Program-made: the position numbers and the translations under genes
The notes under the pieces: generated by a model
Seen by the model: only the letters and a program-made list of their open reading frames with translations
The model's database searches: none
What the model was told of the DNA's origin: nothing
Shown here: positions 1,620-3,687 of the stretch, one piece after another
How positions within the stretch are numbered: the stretch's first letter is position 1
Layout: each line of letters starts with the position of its first letter
NCBI GenBank assembly: GCA_000004985.1
Contig: GG738884.1
DNA: 64,000 bases
Strand: one strand, 5' to 3'
DNA from: Naegleria gruberi
Lineage: Eukaryota

Positions 1620-3687
1620 TTAATCAAATAATCCAGAACTTCCTATCAAAGCTGGGGTTGAAGGAGAAAGTGGTTCCTCTACAACTGTACTGTCCATAGT
1701 TTTCTTTTCCTTTTCATATTCTGATTGAGAAATAATGACTCTAACAAGTTCAACATAACCATCTCCATTATTAGAATCAGGAGTACCTTCTTGTTTAACT
1801 CCTTCATTGTAAGAATAAGCTGCATGAGTAACATAGTGAACTCCATAGTTATTTTGAGGTGTACATTCACCACCACCAAAACCACCTCCTCCACCACCTT
1901 AATTGTCCAATAACACAAATAAAAATTGAAAATAATTGTTAAACTATAAAATTGAAAATGATGCTTACCTTCATACAAGCTACCACCTCCACCACCAAAA
2001 CCACCATTAGCTCCACAAGCATTACTGAAAGTTCCACCTTCACCACCATTCTTGAAACTCTTTCCACCAACACATTGATCGCCAGCACCTCCATCAATAA
2101 ACAAACCACCACCGCCACCGCCTCTGTCACCTTTAGCTGCCTTTTGACTTCTTGCTTCGGCTGGTCCTTTCGTATACACTTGTCCTCCCTTAATTAATGT
2201 TAATTTAAAAAACTCATTCCAAAATCATCATCTACTTACTGGTGATTGAACAGTCCAACTATACCAGTTGGCACCGTTACCTCCACCTCCAATAATAAGA
2301 GGCTTCATAGTATCACTATCAACAACAAAAGTACCACCACCACCTAATTGACCAACTTTTAACAAATCAAAATTGAAAATAATACTTACCACCTCCAGCG
2401 CCACATGAACTACCATTTGTACAGTCGCCACCAACTTGACCTACAAGAATGCTCAATTCTCTGCCTCTCTTCAAGTGAAAGACACCACTGACAATAGCTC
2501 CATATCCTTCTCTGAAAGTTGTAGTATATGTATTTTTACCACCTCTTGCACCAGCTGCAGTAATTTTGTAAAATCCAGTTGCTGGAACAACCCATTTTTG
2601 AATACCATTCTCCAATTTAACCTTATTCTTTAAGAATTTACAACTATCATATTGTGAGCCAATAACTGTTGGTCCGTTTTTGCCTGTAGCACCCAAGTTT
2701 GTAAACTTGATTGACATTCCTTTTGGAAGAAAGTCATATAATACACAATCTCTTTCACGAAAATTCTTATCTTCCTTATTCTCAATCATTGCAGGATTCA
2801 AATTGAATCTCATGGCTTCATAAAGCTTTGGGAAAATGACATCTCTCTTGGAAACCAAAAGTGGATGGGAATCAACTGTCGCCAAGACCTCTCCTTCAAC
2901 AATTGGGAATCTGATTTCACCCAAGAAATAGTCCAAATATTGCAATCTATTTTCCTTATCGTGCTCAATCCATCTCATCAAGGACTTGAATAAATTTCCT
3001 TCACTGCAAATGAGTTCCTTTCCAGCAAGCATGATCTTCAAGTCTTCAATTGGTAATTTAACAAAATGTTGACTTTCACAAACAGTATCAAAATCAGCAG
3101 AAATCTTAGTAAGAAGAGTCTTCTTTAAAGAGTTGATTTCTTTAAATTCTTCTAGGTATTGTGAGCAATTTTCCAAAAGAAGGAATGAAGAATCAGCATC
3201 AACAGCAGCATTTCTCATAATTTCAAGAGTCATCTCCTCAATTTCTTGCATTCCATAGGTATGAGCAAAAGTATACAAATCAATAAATTTATCCATTGTA
3301 TAATCTTTTGTGCAACCAAAATACACAACCTTTAAGAAAATTTCCAATCCAAGATCAGTCACCTGTGGCAACACAAGCTCCTTGCCAATCTCGAATTCTG
3401 GAACAAAAAGAAGTTCCTTGAGTTTTGTACTCCATTTTCCTACCTATGAACCATCATGATGTTCGGATCACACAATTAATATTACAATAACATACCAATG
3501 CTCTAAGAGCAGGAAATCTCTTTCCATTCTTACTGATCAATACGCAATCAGAAGCCTCTTCATCCAAATACAAGGATGAAATCATCGACAAGGTTTTTTC
3601 TGTACATTCAATGTAGGCCTCCTCGTCAATGGCTGTCTTTTGCACAGCACCACCACCACTAGAAGAAGAGCTAGATAATGACAACAT
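1620..3687 (-). CDS. BTB/POZ-BACK protein with a C-terminal ALK/LTK-type glycine-rich domain (GRD). Five exons on the minus strand: 3496..3687, 2390..3443, 2240..2355, 1969..2188, 1620..1897.
   Basis: The BTB core reads DCVLISKNGKRFPALRAL|VGKWSTKLKELLFVPEF across a 52-nt intron, followed by a BACK-like helical region. Then ITAAGARGG...GAIVSGVFHLKRGRELSILVGQVGG, GGGGTFVVDSDTMKPLIIGGGGNGANWY, GGFGGGGGSLYEG and ...GDGYVELVRV match the ALK glycine-rich domain signature (human ALK: [12 protein letters not shown]...LYILVGQQGE...GGGGGGGGATYVF...PLIIAAGGGG...GGFGGGGGGC...GGGGGGYIGG). Introns are 34, 51 and 71 nt, all GTAAGT or GTATGT donors, and sit in phase 1 inside Gly codons. Confidence 0.7.

Follow-up and report, generated by a model that had tools for sequence, protein, structure and literature searches.

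Can an intracellular adaptor scaffold carry the ligand-binding domain of an animal receptor kinase? The question is raised by a gene at positions 1620..3687 (minus strand) of a 64,000-nucleotide stretch of Naegleria gruberi DNA (contig GG738884.1, assembly GCA_000004985.1; hereafter the window). An earlier note, made from the letters of the window alone, had read this gene, here called paralogue 1, as a BTB-BACK adaptor fused to a glycine-rich domain (GRD) of the type found in ALK and LTK. We found that the fusion is genuine: all three domains pass their Pfam cut-offs and belong to one gene, in part to a single exon. Discussions of the GRD normally treat it as peculiar to two animal receptors; in this gene it stands where the substrate receptor of a Cul3-type adaptor would be, facing the cytosol. 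The genes concerned were already deposited and automatically annotated, and what is new is the pairing of a Cul3-adaptor scaffold with a recognition domain that is unconventional for it. Full-text literature searches returned no paper on BTB-GRD proteins, on TRIM-GRD proteins or on the GRD in Naegleria, in keeping with the remark in the earlier note that the architecture was not known to have been described.

A single gene encodes BTB, BACK and glycine-rich domains

The window is AT-rich eukaryotic DNA (~34% GC) with very short introns. Six-frame translation combined with GT..AG boundaries gave a full coding sequence for paralogue 1 in five exons on the minus strand (3687-3496, 3443-2390, 2343-2240, 2188-1969 and 1897-1620), encoding 615 amino acids and ending in a stop codon at 1622-1620. 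The introns measure 52, 46, 51 and 71 nt, all of them GT..AG, and an in-frame stop is located 8 codons 5' of the ATG. The spliced translation is 100% identical to a deposited N. gruberi "predicted protein" (P0001; EFC41714 / XP_002674458 / UniProt D2VNC6, locus NAEGRDRAFT_70448). A 34-nt version of the second intron, which adds the residues VGQL, was ruled out, since the 46-nt version yields the protein as deposited and agrees with N. fowleri.

Exon 2 (3443-2390, 351 codons) encodes the remainder of the BTB domain, the entire BACK domain and the GRD through residue 415, and an unbroken open reading frame (ORF) of 335 codons (2367-3374) covers both BACK and GRD parts. Because one exon holds BACK together with ~110 residues from the start of the GRD, the fusion is not an artefact of the gene model; BTB-BACK and GRD belong to a single gene.

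The BTB/POZ domain occupies aa 41-140 (3216..3567, minus strand; PF00651, 23.4 bits, cut-off 20.5). It is split by the 52-nt phase-0 intron at 3495-3444, whose position is common to the N. fowleri orthologue. BACK follows at aa 166-252 (2880..3140, minus strand; PF07707, 59.9 bits, cut-off 20.9), and helices at aa ~130-160, between the two domains, sit at the 3-box position. The TG/glycine-rich domain of ALK/LTK type extends over aa ~304-577 (1737..2726, minus strand), as given by the envelope of the family GRD profile (aa 304-577). The C-terminal tail (aa 578-615; 1623..1736, minus strand) has one helix (581-593) in the AlphaFold2 model and is then disordered, with a predicted local distance difference test score (pLDDT) <50 at residues 603-615; in the alignment, this tail is missing from the Willaertia homologues. 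Pfam detected neither a kinase nor an EGF domain in paralogue 1, and neither Pfam nor Foldseek returned a Kelch match; the GRD stands C-terminal instead. The protein has no signal peptide, hydrophobic N-terminus or transmembrane segment, its maximum Kyte-Doolittle score being 1.3 in a 19-residue window.

The glycine-rich domain is homologous to that of ALK and LTK

When the spliced protein was searched with the Pfam hidden Markov model ALK_LTK_GRD (PF12810), it passed at aa 353-577, marginally (24.8 bits against a cut-off of 24.5). A margin of only 0.3 bits, in a GRD that is ~24% Gly, is what could be cited for an artefact, either two adjoining genes merged or a "GRD" that is mere low-complexity glycine-rich sequence. 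Because the Pfam score was marginal, we sought independent support. A phmmer search against all Protein Data Bank (PDB) chain sequences recovered the human ALK ectodomain (E = 2.8e-14) and LTK (E = 3e-13). The best stretch, aa 310-406, is not glycine-rich and by itself aligned to residues 38-137 of ALK (7n00) at 43 bits with a bias of 0.1 (KFTNLGATGKNGPT...NGIQKWVVPATGFYKITAAGARGG...GVFHLKRGRELSILVGQ in paralogue 1 versus FTTCGASGPHGPT...GIFNLEKDDMLYILVGQ in ALK). The GRD match is therefore well beyond chance and is not due to glycine bias.

The predicted structure agreed. An AlphaFold2 model, with a 59-sequence alignment as input, had a mean pLDDT of 82.6 and exceeded 90 over most of aa 310-580. 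Foldseek comparison of this model with the PDB placed ~20 ALK/LTK ectodomain chains in the top ranks, including the LTK TG domain 7nx1 at E = 1e-18 and a TM score of 0.75 normalised to the target. The TG domain is a TNF-like beta-sandwich bearing polyglycine-II helices, and paralogue 1 is predicted to carry this fold, both the sandwich and the polyglycine helices. The motifs on which the earlier note had relied are present approximately: GGGGTFVVDSDTMKPLIIGGGG and GGFGGGGG occur as listed, and GVFHLKRGRELSILVGQVG has five, not four, residues before LVGQ.

We consider the artefact scarcely credible. Exon 3443-2390 alone carries residues of all three domains, the non-glycine segment matches ALK, the fold matches LTK/ALK, and the architecture is kept across three genera; both compositional bias and merged genes were rejected on these grounds.

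The N-terminal half resembles Cul3-bound adaptors

A profile built from five family members matched KBTBD2 (E = 2e-17) and KLHL3 (E = 1e-16). Foldseek likewise returned, for the N-terminal half, KBTBD2-Cul3 (8h33), KLHL11 BTB-BACK (3i3n and 4apf), gigaxonin and SPOP, with KLHL3 (4hxi) also among the Cul3-bound adaptors matched. The modelled BTB domain of paralogue 1, taken alone, resembles the BTB domains of KBTBD2, KLHL11 and SPOP.

The architecture is conserved across Heterolobosea

A tblastn search of the window with paralogue 1 identified one paralogue of the same architecture, paralogue 2, at 40572..42560 on the plus strand (601 aa, XP_002674389 / D2VNE6). Its five-exon model (40572-41847, 41893-41931, 41979-42266, 42313-42354 and 42400-42560, plus strand) is 100% identical to the deposited P0112, and its Pfam scores (BTB 60.2, BACK 54.7 and GRD 46.6 bits) are, taken together, far stronger than those of paralogue 1. 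Within its first exon alone (425 codons) lie BTB, BACK and the beginning of the GRD.

The architecture is not unique to paralogue 1. BTB, BACK and GRD are combined in N. fowleri (P0002, 53% identical) and in Willaertia magna (P0003, P0004 and P0110), with orthologue GRDs scoring 26.7-40.1 bits in Pfam, and environmental contigs carry it as well, one of which (L003) bears introns and a gene 58% identical to paralogue 2. A variant with BTB but without BACK occurs in Skoliomonas. N. gruberi has two paralogues and Willaertia at least four. A comparison of the N. gruberi and N. fowleri orthologues showed the highest conservation in the GRD, with 66% identity (60% without Gly) versus 45% for the N-terminal half.

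We noted that GRD proteins lacking a kinase, among them D2VNE6, P0002, P0119 and many phage proteins, are named "receptor protein-tyrosine kinase" in UniRef/UniProt. This name was apparently assigned by a rule triggered by the GRD signature, and its use for kinase-less proteins is a systematic error.

Intron positions lend no support to exon shuffling

The earlier note had also described phase-1 introns inside Gly codons and proposed, from these, that a GRD cassette was acquired by exon shuffling. The description holds for two of the three GRD introns of paralogue 1 (2389-2344 and 1968-1898, minus strand, both phase 1); the third (2239-2189, minus strand) is phase 0, at QSP|GGQ. In paralogue 2 all four introns interrupt a Gly codon in phase 1, and introns near CGAGG|GGGG and SLYEG|GGGG are common to N. 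fowleri. Phase 1 is trivial here, because the GT donor falls within a GGT Gly codon (G|GTAAGT). The proposal itself was rejected: an intron at the BACK/GRD border was found in none of three genes, namely paralogue 1, paralogue 2 and the N. fowleri orthologue.

The GRD is widespread and is joined to several E3 scaffolds

An exhaustive HMMER search with the full-length family profile against 1.84 billion cluster representatives gave 271 matches at E <= 1e-30. Among the best 150 of these 271, only P0003, P0112, P0109, P0135 and the fragment P0172 also cover BTB-BACK, and nearly all the others match profile positions ~295-571 alone, corresponding to the GRD. The domain was found in bacterial proteins with type IX secretion system (T9SS) sorting tails or FN3, LamG or Ig domains, in EGF-GRD proteins of cnidarians and brachiopods, in Reticulomyxa and in viral metagenome proteins; by fold, it was also found in phage virion or tail proteins and in giant-virus proteins. 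The premise that the GRD is a speciality of ALK and LTK was thus too narrow, given its spread over bacteria, phages, giant viruses, cnidarians, brachiopods and protists.

At least six kinds of E3 ubiquitin ligase or E3-adaptor scaffold, from distant lineages, carry a C-terminal GRD. BTB-BACK is the heterolobosean form (Naegleria, Willaertia). Two BTB domains (P0135), or one Pfam BTB hit (P0123), precede the GRD in "Eukaryota sp." TZLM1-RC and GEM-RC1, the latter presumably also Skoliomonas. Environmental contigs encode UBA-Kelch-BTB or Kelch-BTB followed by a GRD (P0009, P0131), and an environmental fragment (P0173) joins it to a KCTD/T1-type BTB_2 domain. A B-box scaffold is found in Willaertia (P0006) and N. 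lovaniensis (P0119), and a RING-B-box-B-box TRIM scaffold in Branchiostoma (P0033, which passes the cut-off at 26.0 bits, and P0017, just under it at 20.5) and in an environmental sequence (P0142). In all of these scaffolds the GRD is at the position usual for a substrate-recognition domain such as Kelch, MATH, PHR or SPRY. TZLM1-RC is a strain of Skoliomonas, a metamonad (PMC11603281).

One of the environmental sequences, a 3.2-kb contig with 41% GC (L002, JGI metagenome 3300056809), holds at 311-3112 an intronless gene for a 933-aa UBA-Kelch-BTB-GRD protein amid tightly packed neighbouring ORFs; the contig may come from a protist or from a giant virus.

We placed 44 GRDs in a rough neighbour-joining tree with 100 bootstraps. 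All heterolobosean GRDs formed one clade (support 96), within which the GRD of the Willaertia B-box protein was nested among those of Willaertia BTB-BACK proteins (100). The GRDs of amphioxus TRIM proteins (100) lay inside a metazoan EGF-GRD/ALK-like group (92), and Skoliomonas GRDs and Kelch-BTB GRDs formed separate clades (99 and 100, respectively). Since the GRDs of amphioxus fall with those of secreted metazoan EGF-GRD proteins, apart from those of Heterolobosea, the amphioxus TRIM-GRD fusion would be independent. The tree suggests at least three independent fusions of a GRD to an E3 scaffold, together with scaffold swapping within Heterolobosea.

BTB-GRD proteins as candidate ubiquitin-ligase adaptors

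We propose that paralogue 1 is a soluble intracellular substrate adaptor of the Cul3-RING ubiquitin ligase (CRL3) type with a GRD in place of Kelch, a reading to which we assign a probability of roughly 60% and from which we infer Cul3 binding, ligase activity and target recognition. In such an adaptor, the BTB domain would dimerise; BTB, 3-box and BACK would dock Cul3-Rbx1, Cul3 being presumed present in N. gruberi; and the C-terminal GRD would capture a protein or other ligand for ubiquitylation. An intracellular location fits, because there is no secretion signal or transmembrane segment, the N-terminal Cys residues of ALK are replaced and Cys positions are variable.

The Cul3-contact loop of adaptors combines a hydrophobic residue with a Glu in the phi-X-E motif. 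This alpha3-beta4 loop clamps Cul3, its hydrophobic residue corresponding to Met-233 of SPOP and Phe-130 of KLHL11 (PMC3597819). Several observations weigh against the adaptor reading. Aligned to M-S-E of KLHL3, the loop reads E-F-E in paralogue 1 and D-F-T in the N. fowleri orthologue, and the BTB score of paralogue 1 is weak at 23.4 bits. Most GRD proteins elsewhere are extracellular, so a binding role inside the cell would be an extrapolation, and the deep nodes of the neighbour-joining tree are without support. Docking of Cul3 by paralogue 1 is uncertain because of its non-canonical loop; judged from these residues, the protein might bind Cul3 weakly, bind it in a shifted register or serve only as a scaffold. 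The same loop looks canonical in paralogue 2 (F-I-E) and in Willaertia P0003 (F-M-E); of the two paralogues it is therefore paralogue 2 that is the more plausible canonical Cul3 adaptor.

The unusual loop of paralogue 1 and its N. fowleri orthologue, along with the weak Pfam BTB score, would also suit a protein in which BTB-BACK is only an oligomerisation scaffold that does not engage Cul3. The product would then be a dimeric or oligomeric factor presenting GRDs, with no role in ubiquitin ligation; it might, for instance, be a binder associated with the cytoskeleton, with vesicles or with nucleic acids. Failure to bind Cul3 is common among BTB proteins, the BTB-zinc-finger proteins being one example. 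We nevertheless judge this explanation unlikely, since BACK typifies Cul3 adaptors and every one of the top matches, in sequence as in fold, is an adaptor bound to Cul3, since paralogue 2 and Willaertia retain the canonical loop, and since the occurrence of the GRD on RING-B-box and KCTD-type BTB scaffolds as well points to ubiquitin ligation.

A further reading concerns what such an adaptor might recognise. Phage tail or virion proteins commonly have GRD folds, as do giant viruses; the fusions are found in phagotrophic protists and also in amphioxus, which contributes several TRIM-GRD paralogues to the matches; and genomes hold several paralogues each (two in N. gruberi, at least four in Willaertia). 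These features could indicate a sensor of pathogens or foreign ligands, in which the GRD recognises a viral, phage or bacterial structure within the amoeba and the E3 scaffold triggers its destruction or a signal, as in antiviral TRIMs. The argument is purely circumstantial, the GRD is the most conserved region between the Naegleria species, and sensing would be a specialisation of the CRL3-type adaptor, not an alternative to it; as an account of paralogue 1 we hold it to be improbable.

More broadly, and tentatively, since we doubt it somewhat more than we favour it, the TG/GRD may be an ancient portable recognition module that eukaryotes repeatedly recruited to serve intracellular ubiquitin ligases as a receptor for substrates or ligands, in Cul3-BTB adaptors of Heterolobosea, Skoliomonas and uncultured protists and in TRIMs of amphioxus. 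It would then form a previously unrecognised class of E3 substrate recognition, possibly one by which phagotrophs sense foreign structures of phage, viral or bacterial origin inside their cells. If the GRD is indeed a substrate-recognition domain, it would be a new class beside Kelch, MATH, PHR and SPRY, would lend evolutionary context to the gain of a ligand-binding module by ALK and LTK, and would provide tractable protist proteins in which to study the binding partners of polyglycine-helix domains.

Neighbouring genes in the window

Upstream of paralogue 1 lies a metallophosphoesterase (530-1595, plus strand) whose match is spread over two ORFs. On its other side are a 188-aa ORF with no Pfam match (3965-4531, plus strand) and a fragment with a protein-kinase match under the Pfam cut-off and a PKD-like domain (4627-5890, minus strand). 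No functional link between paralogue 1 and these three neighbours is evident.

Between the BTB-GRD paralogues and the window end is a receptor-kinase-like gene (47813-53134, minus strand). Its 1773-aa ORF encodes seven Cys-rich repeats of ephrin-receptor-like type, EGF-like modules and, at the C-terminus, a protein kinase domain. An ORF at 61929-63950 (minus strand) matches penicillin amidase very strongly (PF01804, 400 bits); this enzyme is of bacterial type and, in the genome of an amoeboflagellate, is a possible horizontal acquisition. An NYN-domain protein (53535-55487, plus strand) and a gamma-tubulin complex component with GCP N- and C-terminal domains (57493-59916, minus strand) are apparently ordinary housekeeping genes.

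Comparison with known systems

The nearest counterparts of the N-terminal half, by sequence and by fold, are the BTB-BACK-Kelch adaptors of the KLHL/KBTBD family (KLHL3, KLHL11, KBTBD2, KEAP1), several of whose structures were solved with Cul3. Paralogue 1 shares with them BTB, helices at the 3-box position and BACK in the same order, as well as a C-terminal globular domain where the substrate-binding domain is expected. Unlike them, the Naegleria protein lacks a Kelch propeller, and the Cul3-contact loop of paralogue 1 is non-canonical.

The C-terminal half has its counterpart in the TG domain of ALK and LTK (7nx1, 7n00, 7lrz), to which it is homologous by sequence and similar in predicted fold, with the motifs FT.xGxxGxxGP, GIQxWxVP, ILVGQ, GGGGxTFV...PLIIxxGG and GGFGGGGG in common. 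The protein is not, however, a member of these receptor tyrosine kinases, for it has no signal peptide, EGF-like module, transmembrane helix or kinase. Two Cys residues in the N-terminal segment of ALK (ttCga...aqCnn) are Leu and Gly in paralogue 1, and Cys positions vary across the BTB-GRD family; this pattern is consistent with a reducing, cytosolic environment. The ALKAL ligands are known as a vertebrate family.

The TRIM and B-box GRD proteins (the TRIM45/56-like P0017 and P0033 of Branchiostoma, P0119 of N. lovaniensis and P0006 of Willaertia) are alike in placing a GRD C-terminal to an E3 scaffold, which in their case is RING, B-box and coiled coil in place of BTB-BACK. Bacterial, phage and giant-virus GRD proteins belong to the same Pfam family and share the fold, and some of them, such as P0007 at 42% identity, are among the closest sequence relatives outside Heterolobosea. 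In contrast to the Naegleria proteins, the bacterial, phage and giant-virus proteins are extracellular or virion-associated and combine the GRD with FN3, LamG, Ig or T9SS sorting domains, not with a module of the ubiquitin system.

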